Positions 43,062 through 47,764 of a stretch of DNA of 64,000 nt are shown in pieces (position 1 is the first letter of the stretch; each line of letters opens with the position of its first letter). Origin of the DNA: Truepera sp. (GTDB lineage: Bacteria > Deinococcota > Deinococci > Deinococcales > Trueperaceae); contig CBDCKW010000009.1 of NCBI GenBank assembly GCA_965218435.1, positions 2,336,001 through 2,400,000 on the forward strand. Reading direction: 5' to 3'. The notes under the pieces are model-generated. The model was not told where the DNA came from. It saw only the letters and a program-made list of their open reading frames with translations, and ran no database searches. A program made the position numbers and the translations under genes.

Positions 43062-43865
43062 GTGAGAGTTGGGCGAAAGACCGAACGCTTTAGCGACTTC
43101 GGCGAACGGCCTTACTACTTGGAGGCGCTGCGCTTCGCGGCGCTACAGTTTTCTTTATTTTCGCTATGTCTAGTCCTGAGCTTCTCGAGCACCCTGCTGC
43201 TAGCTCAGATTGACGTTGCCGGACAAGCTCGAGCAGCCCTGAGAAACGGGAGTCGCCAAGTTTTGCTGCTGGCGCTTGGGCCGCCCCGCGTCGGCATTCA
43301 GATCGGGCATGACGGCGCTGCCGAGCAGCCCAGTGAACTCGCACATTTGCGCTTTAATACCGGTGGGTTTGCGGGCGGACTCAGTGAACTTGCGGTTAAC
43401 CGCAGCGTGGCTAAAGCGTTAAAGGGGGTGTTGGAGGCCGAGGGCGTTACCGTTGACCTGCTCCGGGCAACGCCGCCGGTAAGTTATCACGCCGACCTGC
43501 TCTTGGCCGTTCACGCCGACAGCGTGTCAGACCCTGCACGAACCGGCTACAAATCGGCCTATTTCGACCCACCCCGGAGCGGGCTCGAGCCTGAACTTAA
43601 AGCCCTGGTAGATGCCAACTATCTGCAGGCAACCGGCCTCCCGGATGACGCTGCAAACACCACTGACGCGATGCGCCACTACTACGCCTTTAATTTTCGG
43701 GGCTACCACCACACCGTTCACCCGGCGACGCCCGCACTGATTGTCGAACTCGGGTATCTGAGTAACCCGGTAGACGCCACCTTGTTACGTGAACCGGACG
43801 TTTTGGCGGACGCGCTTGCAGAGGGCGTTATAAACTTTTTGGAACAGCGGAATCGGTTGCCCTAA
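43062..43865 (+). CDS. N-acetylmuramoyl-L-alanine amidase (Amidase_3)
   Basis: IQIGH, ELAVN, AVHAD, ALIVELGYLSN; TAGGCT-N6-GTG. Confidence 0.85.
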   Translation: MRVGRKTERFSDFGERPYYLEALRFAALQFSLFSLCLVLSFSSTLLLAQIDVAGQARAALRNGSRQVLLLALGPPRVGIQIGHDGAAEQPSELAHLRFNTGGFAGGLSELAVNRSVAKALKGVLEAEGVTVDLLRATPPVSYHADLLLAVHADSVSDPARTGYKSAYFDPPRSGLEPELKALVDANYLQATGLPDDAANTTDAMRHYYAFNFRGYHHTVHPATPALIVELGYLSNPVDATLLREPDVLADALAEGVINFLEQRNRLP

Positions 43866-43887: not shown

Positions 43888-44613
43888 CTAGGTTCGCAGC
43901 AAGTCTCGAGCGGCGCGCACAAGGTCGGCGTTGTCAGCGGCAAGCCGTCCATCCGGCAGAACCGGCGTATCTTCTAAACCGGTTCGAATCCCGTGACCAC
44001 GAGATAGCGCCCGCTTACAAACTGCCTAACTAGCGATGAGGTCGCCGTGATGAACCTGCTCAAGCAAAATGTTAGCCCCGATAAGCACGTTTTCTATCGC
44101 GGCAGCGTGCGCGGTGGCCTCATCCGGGTCGGCCTCGAGCGGTTCGATGAGTACACGTACACACTGTTTAGAGAGACCCGAGCGCACGAACGCCTCTGCA
44201 TCTCCTACACTGAGCAACCCAGCTTCAATCCCGGCACCCCGCCGGAGGAGGAGATCGCACAGTTCCAGAATGCCTTCCTCTCCCTGATTAGCCGTTACCA
44301 AATCCGGTAGTTCTGTCCAAGCCTCTACGAGTGCAAAACGGCGCGACGGGTCAGGCTCGAGACCGGCCGAGGTTGTAAACGAGACAGGCACGCCAGGGCA
44401 AGCGTGACGCACGGCGCGCAGAGCAGCGGCACACGCTTCGGCTGCCAACGACTCCACATCTGAAGAATCGTAAGCGTGCAGGTGAATCACCCGCGCACCC
44501 ACAGCTACTGCTGCACGCGCCTCTTTAGCGAGTGCTTCCGGCATTCTTGGGACTCCTGGGTGTTCATCAACCGAACGCGAACCGTTAAGGGCGACTTGCA
44601 AAAGCAGTGACAT
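43888..44613 (-). pseudogene. Kce/BKACE (DUF849) family gene with an internal amber stop
   Basis: ALNGSR, IHLH; TAG at 44026-44028 is followed in frame by RGHGIRTGLEDTPVLPDGRLAADNADLV. Confidence 0.85.
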
Positions 44614-44702: not shown

Positions 44703-45104
44703 ATGCGCTACGTCATCCTTCTGCTTTTATGTTCGTCTCTAGCTGCCTGCCGCCCGCCGGAGCCTTCAAGTGAAAGTGCGGGGAGTGCTGCGGGCGAAGC
44801 GGGCGTTAAGGTCAGCCTCGAGCTCCCCAAAAAACCTGCGATTGGTCCGGCTCCGGTACGCGTTTACCTGTTAGGTGTAGATAATAAAGCTGTGACCGGC
44901 GCAACCGTTACGGTAACCGGCCTCATGACCCACGCCGGAATGGAACCTGTGATTGCCAAAGCGCCCCCAACTGAAAACGGCCTCTACCAGACCAAAACCT
45001 TTGACTTTGACATGGCGGGCGACTGGATTTTGCAAGCCGACGTGACGCTCCCAGACGGCAACGAAGTGCGTAAAGAGCTGAGCGTGACGGTTCCGGGGGG
45101 CTGA
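44703..45104 (+). CDS. YtkA/FixH-like Ig-fold lipoprotein, putative Cu chaperone
   Basis: LAAC lipobox; MTHAGMEP, GLY and FDMAGDW motifs; TAAAGT-N6-ATG. Confidence 0.8.
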   Translation: MRYVILLLLCSSLAACRPPEPSSESAGSAAGEAGVKVSLELPKKPAIGPAPVRVYLLGVDNKAVTGATVTVTGLMTHAGMEPVIAKAPPTENGLYQTKTFDFDMAGDWILQADVTLPDGNEVRKELSVTVPGG

Positions 45105-45106
45105 GC

Positions 45107-45418
45107 GTGAGTCGGTGGGCGAGGGCTTTAAGAGCGGGCGGTACGACGCTGCTGTTGGGCCTGCTCTGCACCGCCGCACTCGCTGCCCCTGCGCTTAGCA
45201 CGGTTCAAAATTTCGCGCATACGCATTCAGGTAGTACGCCGCACCATGTTCACCCGTTGTGCCTTTTACTCGGCGGGACCCCACCGGCTTCGCCCATTGT
45301 TGCAGCTGGGTCTATAAAACGTGACGACGCTCTCCCGTTTTACGTCATTTCTTTCGTCGCAGCCGAAGTCTTTACGGGTTCACGCAGCCGTGCGCCTCCT
45401 CCAAACGTCGAACCGTAG
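45107..45418 (+). CDS. Putative exported His-rich regulatory peptide with C-terminal RAPP ribosome-arrest motif
   Basis: Signal-like N-terminus, HTH-x5-HHVHPLC, SRSRAPPP four residues before the stop. Confidence 0.75.
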   Translation: MSRWARALRAGGTTLLLGLLCTAALAAPALSTVQNFAHTHSGSTPHHVHPLCLLLGGTPPASPIVAAGSIKRDDALPFYVISFVAAEVFTGSRSRAPPPNVEP

Positions 45419-45465
45419 CCACTAGACGTTTTTTGCGCCTTGATTTACGGGGCAGAGTTGGAGGA
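45397..45465 (+). promoter_or_regulatory. Anti-SD/SD sequestering structure
   Basis: TCCTCCAA (45397-45404) is complementary to TTGGAGGA (45458-45465); nested ACGTC/GACGT stem. Confidence 0.6.
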
Positions 45466-47038
45466 CATCATCACGACTAAGCAAGCTTATCCAGACACAG
45501 CGCCGGACAAAGTAGAGCTGCCGCTGCACCGCCCCAACCGCCCGGTTTGGCCCGCGCAACCTAAGGGTTTTGACCTCTTCCGGCTCCCCGGTCTGCGGCG
45601 GTTTTTTCGCTGGCGTTACGCCCGTTTCGTGTTTCAGTTACCGCTTTTGCTGCTGGCCGTGTTCGCCGTGGTAGACGGCCTCACCGGAGACCAATTAGCG
45701 CCGCGCAACATCGCCACGACGACGCTCTGGTTGCACTACCGGGGCCTGGTCGTGGTCGCACTCGCCGTTTTCGGTAACGCCTTTTGTTCCGCCTGTCCAC
45801 TCATGCTGACGCGGGGGTTGACGAGACAGTTGGAGCGCGTTTTGCCCCATAAGCTCAGCTGGCCCAGGGGCTTAAAAAATAAATATCTGGTTACGGCGCT
45901 GCTGCTCGCTTTCTTTTTATCGTATGAAGTGTTCGACTTTTGGGCCAGCCCGTTTTTAACCGCGTGGCTGGTGATCGGCTACTTTATGGGCGCGCTCGTC
46001 GTTGACACACTTTTTCCCGCCGGGACGTTTTGCCGTTACGTGTGCCCCCTCGGAAACTTCAACTTTACCTTTGCTACGGCCTCACCCACACAAATTGTAG
46101 CCGTCAACCCGGACGTGTGCAGCAGCTGTCACGATAAGCCGTGTTTGCACGGGCGTGAAAGCTACGCAGACGCGTCTCAAACCAAAGGACAAGCAGCGTT
46201 TATTCCGCTGTCACAGATTGAGCACGCGAACGGCTCCGGCTACTTTCCGGGCTGCGAAACCGACCTGATGGTGCCGACGATCACCTCGAACATGGACTGC
46301 ACCTTTTGTCTAAACTGTGTGCGGGCATGCCCGTATGACAACGTGGCGCTTACCACCCGGACGCCGGGGCTCGAGTGGACCCGTAACCCGTGGGCCAAAC
46401 GCGGCGGCTTCGCCGTTATCTTACTGAGCATTCTCCTAACCTTTTGGGGTCTCCTCAACGCCCTTGCGATGATCGGCCCGTTTTACAAGGGTGCAGAAAC
46501 CCTCTCAGCAGCTCTGGGAACGCGGAGTGAGGCGCTGCTACTCGCCGTCATCTTCGGCAGTGTCACCCTGCTCGGGTTCGGTCTGACTACGGCGATGAGT
46601 TTACTCGCTGACCGGTTAGGCGGCACAAAGAGCACGCTCCGACCGGCGCTCATGCGCTGGGGTTATGTCCTCTTGCCCCTCGGCTTCGGCTTTTGGGCGG
46701 CGCACTATCTGTTTCACTTCTCAACCGGGGCGCTCAGCATCGTGCCGGTATTTCAGCACTTTTTTGAGACCTGGGGCTTCGCCGTTGACCCGAATTGGCG
46801 ACTCTCGAGGCTCGTCCCAACCCACTGGCTCTTCCCTATCGAGGCAGGATTTGTCAGTGTCTACTCGCTTTTGGCGGTATGGACAGCGTTTCGGATTGCG
46901 CTCCGCGATTTCGGTCGGCGCGGCGTGCTCGCGCTCTGGCCGCCGCTCCTATTCGTTCTCCTGTTTGCGGCACTGTCACTATGGATACTCGCGCAGCCGA
47001 TGGAGATGCGCGGCACCATTTTCGGCCCGACGTTTTAG
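45440..47038 (+). CDS. Polytopic membrane 4Fe-4S protein (CcoG/FixG/NapH/NosR-like); true start may be ATC 45470
   Basis: FCSACP, FCRYVCP, CSSCHDKPC, CTFCLNCVRACP; about 9-10 TM segments. Confidence 0.85.
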   Translation: MIYGAELEDIITTKQAYPDTAPDKVELPLHRPNRPVWPAQPKGFDLFRLPGLRRFFRWRYARFVFQLPLLLLAVFAVVDGLTGDQLAPRNIATTTLWLHYRGLVVVALAVFGNAFCSACPLMLTRGLTRQLERVLPHKLSWPRGLKNKYLVTALLLAFFLSYEVFDFWASPFLTAWLVIGYFMGALVVDTLFPAGTFCRYVCPLGNFNFTFATASPTQIVAVNPDVCSSCHDKPCLHGRESYADASQTKGQAAFIPLSQIEHANGSGYFPGCETDLMVPTITSNMDCTFCLNCVRACPYDNVALTTRTPGLEWTRNPWAKRGGFAVILLSILLTFWGLLNALAMIGPFYKGAETLSAALGTRSEALLLAVIFGSVTLLGFGLTTAMSLLADRLGGTKSTLRPALMRWGYVLLPLGFGFWAAHYLFHFSTGALSIVPVFQHFFETWGFAVDPNWRLSRLVPTHWLFPIEAGFVSVYSLLAVWTAFRIALRDFGRRGVLALWPPLLFVLLFAALSLWILAQPMEMRGTIFGPTF

Positions 47039-47074
47039 CACTCTCGACTTGCAAAAGCTGTTACGATGCCTGAC

Positions 47075-47764
47075 ATGTTGCGTTTAGGTCTGCTTGCTCT
47101 TCTACTCACTATGTCTCTGCAACTCGTACTGGCACAAACTGAACCGCTCCCCGAATGCGGCTACGAAGACCGTCCTGCTACGCTGACGAGCTACGACGAC
47201 TGGCCGTATACAGTGCTCGACACGCTCTACGCGCTGCCTGAAGATTACGCGCCGAGTGATTTGGAGCCCGTCACCTCGTTGGGCGTCGGCACCGACGCGC
47301 TGCAGCTACGCAGCTTGGTTATGCCCGATTTGAAGGCGCTGTTAGCAGCGGCTGAGGCTGATGGGATGGGGCTCGAGGTTCAGTCTGCGTACCGCTCATA
47401 TGGGTATCAGAAGCAGACGTTTGACTATTGGACAGCACAAGACGGCTACGCCGCCGCCCTAAAGAGCAGCGCCCGCCCCGGTCACTCGGAACATCAGCTC
47501 GGCACCGCGCTTGACTTCCGCAGTGCGGACGGCGACCCCGCATGGGATTTGGATGACTGGGCGACGACACCTGAAGGGGCTTGGCTTCAAGAACACGCCG
47601 CCGAGTTCGGTTTTGTGATGAGTTATCCGAAGGGTAAAGAGGCGCTGACCTGCTACATTTATGAGCCGTGGCATTACCGTTATGTCGGGCGTGAAGAGGC
47701 CGCTGCGGTGGCGGCGAGCGGTCTCACACTGCGCGAATGGTTGTGGGAGCACCAAACACCATGA
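47075..47764 (+). CDS. M15B (VanY-like) D-Ala-D-Ala/LD-carboxypeptidase, secreted
   Basis: SAYRSY, PGHSEHQLGTALD, YEPWHYRYVG; TACGAT-N7-ATG 47075. Confidence 0.92.
   Translation: MLRLGLLALLLTMSLQLVLAQTEPLPECGYEDRPATLTSYDDWPYTVLDTLYALPEDYAPSDLEPVTSLGVGTDALQLRSLVMPDLKALLAAAEADGMGLEVQSAYRSYGYQKQTFDYWTAQDGYAAALKSSARPGHSEHQLGTALDFRSADGDPAWDLDDWATTPEGAWLQEHAAEFGFVMSYPKGKEALTCYIYEPWHYRYVGREEAAAVAASGLTLREWLWEHQTP

Follow-up and report, generated by a model that had tools for sequence, protein, structure and literature searches.

A candidate copper-responsive ribosome-arrest leader with four histidines between ytkA and a membrane ferredoxin gene in Truepera

On the forward strand of the 64,000-nucleotide stretch of Truepera sp. 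DNA analysed here (the window), three co-oriented genes follow one another at 44703-45104, 45107-45418 and 45440-47038, the first two separated by 2 nt as the first-pass annotation had described. The middle ORF of 103 aa very probably encodes a regulatory arrest leader; if so, copper is likely to be its main signal, and given copper as the main signal, it is probable that the metal releases the stall rather than prolonging it. On balance, we lean towards a cis-acting copper-responsive ribosome-arrest leader of the CruR/CutF kind carrying four His residues, in which the stall frees the Shine-Dalgarno (SD) sequence of the ferredoxin gene at low copper and copper releases the stall. The annotation had proposed a RAPP arrest leader of Deinococcota that senses metal in a copper-supply setting. 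This core idea is supported by the conserved motifs, the constant spacing, the copper genes nearby and a helix predicted between the arrest site and the SD.

The first gene (44703..45104, + strand, 133 aa) encodes a YtkA/CtaK-like lipoprotein, as originally annotated. Its product matched PF13115 with an E value of 6.8e-14 and 52.7 bits (cut-off 25.9), and an alignment of 22 sequences demonstrated invariance of the lipobox Cys16 as well as of M75, H77, M80, M104 and W108, the latter five representing a candidate Cu(I) site judged from the sequence. The leader ORF (45107..45418, +) starts with GTG 2 nt after the ytkA stop. A basic start is followed by a hydrophobic helix at residues 3-31 (AlphaFold2 and the family hydropathy profile), and residues 1-31 (45107..45199, +) are predicted to form a Sec export signal or a TM anchor. 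The motif HxH-x6-HxH (H38, H40, H47 and H49; 45218..45253, +) constitutes a candidate metal site, and the RAPP arrest motif R95-P98 is located at 45389..45400 (+), with 45 residues separating H49 from R95. In 91 aligned leader sequences with a mean column identity of 26%, H38, H40 and H47 are invariant and H49 is conserved to 99%; R95, P97 and P98 are likewise invariant in the family alignment. The hydrophobic N-terminus, the His cluster and RAPP(P) of the annotation were thus recovered, but RAPP does not directly precede the stop, as the five residues PNVEP follow it. A scan of the six-frame translation of the organism's own genome (9.6 million residues) for HxH-x6-HxH-x(43-48)-RxPP retrieved only this leader and one paralogue, which places the pattern beyond chance.

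The conservation of the leader was evaluated with a search profile comprising solely the N-terminal half and not including RAPP. The family was found at 67 places, spread over 58 of the 364 Deinococcota genomes, each of the 58 belonging to Trueperaceae, and RxPP was present downstream of the profile match in all 65 readable places, two more being cut by contig ends. The conservation that the annotation had suggested looking for in Deinococcota and Chloroflexota consequently holds within Trueperaceae, but no leader was detected in any of 52 ferredoxin loci of Chloroflexota, Planctomycetota and Acidobacteriota. Weak matches outside Trueperaceae obtained in a first search (L146 and L147 with stops and without the motif, L148 without the motif) did not recur with the N-terminal-half profile. 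Among 110 representatives (clusters at 50% identity), HxH..HxH was present in 108, followed by RxPP in 104, and none contained CxxC after residue 25. The distance from the last His to the Arg is 46-48 positions, corresponding to 45-47 intervening residues, in 98 of the 104. RAPP was found in 83 of these leaders, RGPP in 11, RDPP and RLPP in 3 each, RSPP in 2 and other variants in 2; RAPP, RGPP, RDPP and RSPP are arrest-competent or partly permissive variants (PMC12992588), which argues for the arrest-leader reading. In a leader tree based on 97 columns, 23 of the 25 ytkA-linked copies fell into one supported group of 35 rows; the order of events is not given by the tree.

The leader represents a Trueperaceae family without existing annotation. 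Literature searches retrieved no paper on it, and a search of all but one of the supplementary files of PMC12992588 gave no match. The CruR supplementary tables contain five occurrences of 'deinococc' (first row D. alpinitundrae) and no Truepera. The supplement text of PMC9973294 (8,054 characters, which do not comprise the CutF-like protein list) gave no match for Truepera, Deinococc, Fer4_5 or YtkA; members of the family may be among the entries of that list, and the leader itself fits its rule (<150 aa, PP among the 15 C-terminal residues, next gene on the same strand within 1000 nt).

The closest known systems are compared as follows. CruR (Bp2923) of Bordetella pertussis is the prototype of DUF2946/PF11162 (PMC9426467), and its arrest has been shown (PMC12992588). 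In CruR, 45 residues lie between CxxC and RAPP, and regulation is lost when five residues are added (PMC9426467). The leader resembles CruR in being small and, by prediction, exported, with a C-terminal RAPP that a candidate metal motif precedes by 45 residues, and in heading copper-acquisition genes (CopC, MbnPH-like, PepSY_TM). In contrast to CruR, it carries HxH-x6-HxH instead of CxxC, its match to DUF2946 (20.5 bits) stays below the gathering cut-off of 23.7 with only 2 of 91 family members matching at E<=0.1, and it is preceded by ytkA and is therefore the second gene of the run rather than the first as in CruR-type operons. CutF of Rhodobacter capsulatus shares a Sec signal (predicted for the leader), a metal motif (candidate in the leader) separated from a Pro-rich tail by about 45 residues, and a stem-loop over the next SD (predicted for the leader) that is opened by the stalled ribosome (PMC9973294; bioRxiv 10.1101/2025.02.05.636593); its 45-residue spacer has been read as setting the site in the SecY vestibule (PMC9973294). 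CutF, however, uses CxxxC and controls a detoxifying oxidase, whereas the leader is His-only with copper-supply targets. The use of His instead of CxxC, which the annotation did not recognise from described systems, has been published, as the His-only CutF-like SSN clusters 14 and 17 lie beside HupE/UreJ (Ni/Co) genes (PMC9973294). The C-terminal RAPP in a small, predictedly exported protein is also shared, compared at the motif level only, with ApdA/ApdP and with Streptomyces RAPP/RGPP peptides (PMC10951233, PMC12992588). Seven out of seven small C-terminal RAPP/RGPP proteins assayed showed arrest (PMC12992588), and among the Streptomyces peptides there are examples with conserved His/Cys that lie upstream of copper genes (PMC10951233, PMC12992588). 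ApdA/ApdP are located before sec genes and lack a metal motif, unlike the leader with its candidate metal motif and with no sec gene among the downstream proteins scanned.

The genes next to the leaders point to copper. Of 63 leader loci, 36 have CopC, CopD, MbnP or NosL downstream, 13 have the ferredoxin but none of these four, 3 have CCP_MauG and 3 PepSY_TM, and the paralogue in the same genome heads copC-copD-mbnP-CCP_MauG. Several targets are His-rich proteins without a Pfam family, and a Cys/His leader variant (L141) precedes a Peripla_BP_2/FecCD ABC importer. These two observations, together with the HupE/UreJ genes that follow the His-only CutF-like clusters, might indicate that the four-His site senses Ni, Zn or Co and that the leader controls genes accordingly; His ligands alone indeed do not indicate copper, given the His-only leaders beside Ni/Co genes. 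Nevertheless, HupE/UreJ, NikM and ZnuA were not matched by any of the 36+18 proteins scanned downstream of leaders, which sets the family apart from clusters 14 and 17, and the named targets belong to copper families, so we consider another metal improbable. The targets bear on polarity as well. As in CutF, copper at the SecY exit could prolong the stall, the ferredoxin and CopC/CopD then being induced by copper for tolerance or buffering; the predicted SD-shielding helix, the short intergenic distance and the export signal are indeed closer to CutF than to CruR, and over-production of CcoG raises copper tolerance (review PMC7558416). This polarity appears unlikely to us, since most leader targets serve acquisition or delivery, MbnPH and PepSY_TM are characteristic of operons headed by CruR, and neither an efflux pump nor a multicopper oxidase was found among the scanned downstream proteins. 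In copper-starved B. subtilis, CopC/CopD moreover support oxidases (PMC13344008).

The RNA of the locus offers a possible route from stall to target. The Pro-Pro-Pro-Asn codons contain a predicted anti-Shine-Dalgarno strand (45397..45404, +) that forms an 8-bp helix with the SD region of the ferredoxin gene (45458..45465, +, including GGAGG at 45460-45464), thereby putatively sequestering it; the predicted helix is present in both the MFE and the centroid fold, with 8.5 expected pairs. The anti-SD strand is thus predicted to be the arrest codons themselves, unlike in CutF. Forcing the footprint of a stalled ribosome to be unpaired lowered the predicted cost of opening the SD from 10.6 to 6.0 kcal/mol. 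At least four expected pairs between arrest site and SD were obtained in 12 of 18 ytkA-linked loci compared to 41 of 175 (23%) CCNCC-matched control windows, with a Fisher p of 3e-4 that is overstated because kin are not independent; the downstream start codons in these counts were picked by script, and some are doubtful. Among 43 loci, the footprint saved more than 2 kcal/mol of opening cost in 15, compared to 5.5% of 220 control genes, and when the folded segment was recoded synonymously the mean gain was 0.65 instead of 1.5. In 5 of 7 loci, the nucleotide that follows CCUCC can moreover pair with the one that precedes GGAGG; all four Watson-Crick combinations are represented, this covariation resting on seven loci. 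The helix was absent in 6 of the 18 ytkA-linked loci, including the close relative L086 as judged from its local fold, leader loci without ytkA were near the control (8/25, p 0.24), and the fold of the segment as a whole showed no excess stability over shuffles (z -0.35). At the first Pro, avoidance of CCC (5/63) mostly reflects general Pro-Pro usage (CCC 17% in control PP pairs). CCA/CCT remained enriched at this position (39/63 compared to 64/219), a kin-inflated excess.

The arrest leader might also act mainly via Rho-dependent termination, the mechanism of CruR, with the SD helix being incidental. The rho gene is present in the source genome, the distance from RAPP to the next start is 150-330 nt in many family members, and loci without ytkA lack the excess of SD pairing. 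At this locus, however, only 51 nt separate the leader stop from the probable ferredoxin start, in contrast to the 162-nt Rho-controlled spacer of CruR. The C>G skew at the stall site (61/62 loci) is equalled in the 5' part of the leader (59/63) and is therefore not the mark of a rut site. We regard a predominantly Rho-dependent mode as quite improbable. A promoter and terminator scan gave no signal exceeding shuffles.

The third gene encodes a polytopic membrane ferredoxin (45440..47038, +; 532 aa if started at TTG). TTG 45440 is probably not the start, as the only GGAGG lies 5 nt before a non-canonical ATC at 45470..45472 (+), the probable start, where the close relative L088 has GTG; this ATC suggests weak translation. 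TTG 45440 and TTG 45458 are the alternative starts noted. A deep contig of sequencing run X1, which may be the source sample, spans 45409-45639 and differs solely at 45448 and 45568. In 55 sequences, 11 Cys are invariant (CxxCP, CxxxCP, CxxCxxxxC, a lone C and CxxCxxCxxxCP), as are M334, H412, H416, M511 and M513 in its C-terminal membrane domain (residue numbers counted from ATC 45470). The designation CcoG/NapH-like of the annotation was not upheld: no TIGR02745 match was found in the organism's own genome at E<=0.001 or among the NCBIfam hits of the protein, and TIGR02163 scored 41.8 bits with a cut-off of 213.05. Of the profile families it had pointed to, YtkA was accordingly confirmed, whereas DUF2946 and CcoG were not. 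The protein shares with CcoG (review PMC7558416) and NapH/YccM-type proteins the polytopic architecture, ferredoxin Cys clusters, CxxxCP-type motifs as candidate copper ligands and linkage to oxidase assembly. Its long C-terminal membrane domain with invariant Met/His, helical in the structural model (pLDDT 82), appears to differ from the Ig-like domain of CcoG, and its partners are YtkA, CtaG, SCO and PCuAC as opposed to ccoHIS. Solved structures gave three weak matches by sequence and none in Foldseek at E<=0.001, and the best hits of a wide structural search (Z 6.7) were generic helical bundles; no new fold is claimed.

YtkA, CtaG, SCO or PCuAC occurred in the fetched flanks of 75 of 80 ferredoxin loci, and Caa3_CtaG was fused to the ferredoxin in 30 of 52 loci outside Deinococcota (confirmed by Pfam in 8/8), an association suggestive of a role in providing heme-copper oxidases with copper. 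The source genome contains three CtaG and three COX1 matches. [quoted passage not shown] The locus resembles B. subtilis CtaK (YtkA)/CtaG in its leading PF13115 lipoprotein and in the Caa3_CtaG fusions of ferredoxin homologues; in the passages of PMC13344008 consulted, neither CtaK nor CtaG was connected with a ferredoxin of this type or with an arrest leader, and searches covering part of the literature retrieved no paper on the fusion. Prediction of a YtkA-ferredoxin complex (median 0.31, mark 0.32) gives no answer either way.

The three genes do not form the module that the annotation had assumed. In 20 of 28 Deinococcota ferredoxin loci the ferredoxin directly follows ytkA with no leader in between; ytkA directly precedes the leader in 25 of 63 loci and is absent before the other 38, and the ferredoxin is the direct target in only 7 of 63. 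The leaderless pair is the common state and the leader is restricted to Trueperaceae; ytkA and the ferredoxin appear to be an older pair, with the leader sitting between its two genes. The ferredoxin occurs in 117 of 128 genomes of the family and does not need leader control, as the leaderless loci also indicate. In 19 of the 26 genomes with the leader upstream of the ferredoxin other genes intervene, and the direct junction may therefore stem from cargo loss. The leader could then be a constitutive vestigial spacer after loss of CopC/CopD, or else a secretion monitor of the SecM/ApdA type, without metal sensing at this locus. We give this little credence: direct loci of several species have kept all four His together with the spacing, RAPP and the SD helix, and no sec or yidC gene was seen downstream of the leaders scanned.

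In the preferred copper-release mechanism, ribosomes ending ytkA would restart on the leader, and its hydrophobic N-terminus would draw the nascent chain into SecY. The fixed spacer of 45-47 residues would bring the His motif to the outer opening of the translocon, while the ribosome stalled at RAPP is predicted in silico to cover 45397-45404, leaving the SD unpaired so that the ferredoxin is translated. Judging from the type of targets, available copper would bind the His motif and release the stall, whereupon the helix would re-form and the copper-supply gene downstream would be translated less. Rho may contribute transcription polarity, and ytkA, being upstream of the leader, would escape control.

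To our knowledge, CruR and CutF are the only metal-sensing arrest leaders worked out so far, both Cys-based, proteobacterial and of opposite polarity. The CruR/CutF-type switch and His-only CutF-like leaders are already known; what sets the present family apart is a His-only leader with copper-supply targets. Only tentatively do we go further and envisage a transferable four-His copper-sensing arrest cassette, whose stall codons double as the anti-SD strand so that it can sit mid-operon and control whichever gene follows. In Truepera it might control a membrane cupric reductase of a class that is widespread but undescribed, a CcoG counterpart that would serve caa3/aa3-type oxidases alongside YtkA and CtaG across Deinococcota, Chloroflexota, Planctomycetota and Acidobacteriota, and the Cys/His variant might be retuned to another metal. 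The family combines the spacing of CruR and CutF with more than 100 divergent members, targets that belong to copper handling and a predicted RNA switch of short length, and thereby offers a compact system for asking whether metal choice and polarity depend on the type of ligand. Together, the leader and the CtaG fusions also single out the uncharacterised membrane ferredoxins as candidates for the copper reductase that assists oxidase assembly where CcoG is lacking.

The three ORFs all lie on the plus strand, at 44703-45104, 45107-45418 and 45440-47038. The first matches the YtkA family (PF13115, E 6.8e-14), and the co-oriented arrangement headed by a YtkA-like lipoprotein proposed in the first-pass annotation was confirmed. 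The second, the leader, comprises a hydrophobic helix (residues 3-31), the histidine motif H38xH40-x6-H47xH49 (His4), a 45-residue spacer, R95APP, five further residues and the stop. The reported His cluster, spacer and RAPP are present, though RAPP does not directly precede the stop. The third ORF shows only weak similarity to Fer4 and NapH. A six-frame search of the 4.8-Mb genome gives two instances of the whole leader pattern, one in the window and one in a paralogue at G000:C9:3058784-3059080 (loci L082, L150). The paralogue heads copC-copD-mbnP-CCP_MauG (MbnH-like), and in the leader tree it and the window's copy sit on different branches. RAPP is uncommon in the long ORFs of this genome (7 versus 40 for AAPP), in line with avoidance of an arrest motif.

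A four-sequence profile including RAPP collected a leader family of 110 clusters at 50% identity. HxH-x(4-8)-HxH was detected in 108 and RxPP C-terminal to it in 104 (RAPP 83, RGPP 11, RDPP 3, RLPP 3, RSPP 2, other 2), with the Arg 46-48 residues after the last His in 98 of these 104; CxxC after residue 25 was found in none of the 110. Mean column identity of a 91-row alignment (90 family proteins and that of the window; short, over-long and partial rows excluded) was 26%, the only invariant columns being H38, H40, H47, R95, P97 and P98. Since the first profile contained RAPP, the search was repeated over 364 Deinococcota genomes using the N-terminal 58 positions only, yielding 67 places in 58 genomes. 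All are Trueperaceae: the leader was found in 57 of the 127 other genomes of that family, and five further families, with 236 genomes, gave none. Two places are interrupted by contig ends and the remaining 65 all carry RxPP, 63 by the strict pattern as well as L141 and L185 with altered His spacing. Conservation of the His cluster and RAPP, which was to be checked among Deinococcota homologues, holds within Trueperaceae, with no leader found in the five other families. The leader is real and probably functional; a rival reading is that of a vestigial leader. The divergent leader at L141:1421-1768 (genome G357) combines a Cys/His motif, C..HPH...HHLC, with RAPP and precedes two Peripla_BP_2 genes, FecCD and an ABC ATPase; it may have been adapted to the uptake of iron, heme or cobalamin.

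The family has no entry in Pfam. DUF2946, with which the leader was to be compared, matches only 2 of the 91 rows, weakly, and the window's leader (20.5 bits, cut-off 23.7) falls outside it, also lacking CxxC. In a protein-language-model atlas unnamed clusters came first, the nearest named being DUF2607 and DUF2946, which serves as a lead only. The leader resembles CruR and CutF in its supposed mode of action, and it conforms to the length, proline and neighbour rules that define "CutF-like" proteins. The literature describes His-only CutF-like members beside HupE/UreJ (PMC9973294), so that His in place of CxxC has a precedent, small RAPP proteins ahead of copper genes across phyla (PMC12992588) and a few CruR homologues in Deinococcus (PMC9426467). 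No description of the present family was found, the published list of CutF-like proteins lying outside the scope of this search.

Downstream neighbours of 63 leader loci were read over 1.5-4 kb and classified with local tblastn and with Pfam scans run on representative proteins. CopC, CopD, MbnP or NosL was encoded in 36 loci, the ferredoxin without any of these in 13, CCP_MauG in three and PepSY_TM in another three; in one further locus (L108) the ferredoxin is reached in the longer locus L004, three stop at a contig edge and four show no recognised gene. HupE/UreJ, sec and efflux genes were not among the downstream proteins scanned. The targets of the leader family, judged by gene content, are copper genes, which bears out the proposed copper-supply setting. 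An unannotated secreted Ig-like protein with His just after the signal peptide is a candidate copper chaperone; its gene, present at L119:3526-3957, L109:1873-2328, L090:911-1441 and in 13 further loci, often comes straight after the leader, beside copC. His-rich secreted proteins of ~280-330 aa without Pfam family directly follow the leader in L096, L097, L100, L101, L106, L112, L113 and L140, and ORFs that look transposase-like separate leader and cargo at L092:1967-3010.

The three genes proposed as a module do not form a fixed one. Among 80 ferredoxin loci compared (28 Deinococcota, 52 other phyla), the leader lies 5′ of the ferredoxin in 4 and 0, respectively, and ytkA directly 5′ without leader in 20 and 18. 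The ferredoxin occurs in 117 of 128 Trueperaceae genomes (one of the 117, G325, unpublished) and the leader in 58. In 26 of these 58 the leader lies 5′ of the ferredoxin at a distance of up to 8 kb, directly in 7 and separated from it by other genes in 19; ytkA immediately precedes the leader in 25 of 63 loci. On the simplest reading, a leader-headed copper cassette would have joined an older ytkA-ferredoxin pair in Trueperaceae, Truepera being left without cargo; the leader tree gives no order for these steps. Locus L005 lacks ytkA and has ORFs of transposase-like appearance 5′ of the ferredoxin. The flanking Amidase_3 gene (43062-43865, in front of ytkA in many Trueperaceae loci) and the VanY-like D,D-carboxypeptidase gene behind the ferredoxin (47066-47764, also in L004) are conserved, without a clear copper link. 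A minus-strand ORF between amidase and ytkA (44026-44613; positions 3-111 of 274 of the beta-keto acid cleavage enzyme family) looks like an inserted remnant; in the closely related loci L003 and L006 the two genes are direct neighbours.

The nearest named ferredoxin loci are from Truepera sp. (82% and 77%). Across 55 sequences, 11 Cys are kept (CxxCP, CxxxCP, CxxCxxxxC, a lone Cys and CxxCxxCxxxCP), as are, within a helical C-terminal membrane domain, M334, H412, H416, M511 and M513. CcoG also has CxxxCP motifs, and Cu(I) is bound by Met/His/Trp sets. The label "CcoG/NapH-like" did not survive profile searches, by which the ferredoxin is neither CcoG nor, with only weak similarity, NapH. Outside Deinococcota, the ferredoxin is fused to an N-terminal Caa3_CtaG in 30 of 52 loci (among L037-L079; Pfam confirmed 8 of 8 tested), mostly Planctomycetota and Acidobacteriota as assigned by record title, and follows SCO-PCuAC-YtkA in 8; literature searches brought up no description of the fusion. 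At least one of YtkA, CtaG, SCO and PCuAC accompanies 75 of the 80 loci, and there are three matches each to CtaG and COX1 in the Truepera genome itself. Assembly of the caa3 oxidase of B. subtilis involves CtaK (YtkA), CtaG and Sco, and a local cupric reductase is discussed as needed where CcoG is absent (PMC13344008). From these links and that work, a CcoG-like reductase role of the ferredoxin is therefore a reasonable inference.

What the sequence shows directly is the conservation of signal, His4, spacing and RAPP, with copper genes as neighbours. In small exported proteins, RAPP/RGPP close to the C-terminus arrested ribosomes in 7 of 7 cases tested (PMC12992588), spacing matters in CruR (PMC9426467) and 45 residues in CutF are argued to place the metal site at the SecY vestibule (PMC9973294). 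The leader would likewise arrest ribosomes via RAPP, with His4 as candidate metal site. Most targets serve acquisition or delivery and should be on at copper scarcity; for this reason we infer that copper is the ligand of His4 and that its binding would free the stalled ribosome. Rival readings are the CutF polarity instead of copper release, or a metal other than copper.

Arrest would be coupled to ferredoxin translation by a predicted RNA switch hiding the ferredoxin SD behind the arrest codons. In the fold of 45370-45520, 45397-45404 (codons P97-N100) pairs with 45458-45465, containing the sole GGAGG before the ferredoxin. Over 54 of 63 loci with script-picked downstream starts, some uncertain, cognate arrest-site/SD pairing reached -10.8 versus -10.0 kcal/mol for permuted pairs within GC classes (p 0.002). 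In 43 loci with a start within 210 nt, a stalled-ribosome footprint made the SD cheaper to open by more than 2 kcal/mol in 15 cases; the share was 5.5% among 220 control genes. The mean gain was 1.5 kcal/mol for the native sequences and 0.65 kcal/mol after synonymous recoding (p 0.017). The signal is concentrated in the ytkA-linked group: at least 4 expected pairs were found in 12 of 18 ytkA-linked and 8 of 25 other loci, which are kin rather than independent, versus 46 of 400 random windows and 41 of 175 also containing CCNCC. In seven loci with CCUCC and GGAGG, a flanking position pairs in five (A-U twice, U-A, G-C, C-G). The helix is absent from the local fold of L086, and the window's fold is no more stable than shuffled sequence (z -0.35); Rho-based control is the rival to be set against the RNA switch.

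Behind the window's SD neither ATG nor GTG is present (45467-45472). ATC 45470, aligned with GTG in L088, is the likely ferredoxin start, and a deep contig of sequencing run X1, possibly the source sample, has identical bases at SD and ATC. In L085, L086 and L089 the strong SD opens mini-ORFs of 14, 6 and 12 codons, respectively, whose stop overlaps the ferredoxin ATG or lies right beside it and which may represent frameshifts rescued by translational coupling.

To the known leaders, the Truepera locus adds a mid-operon placement, a predicted helix between arrest codons and SD, and a CtaG-linked ferredoxin as probable target.
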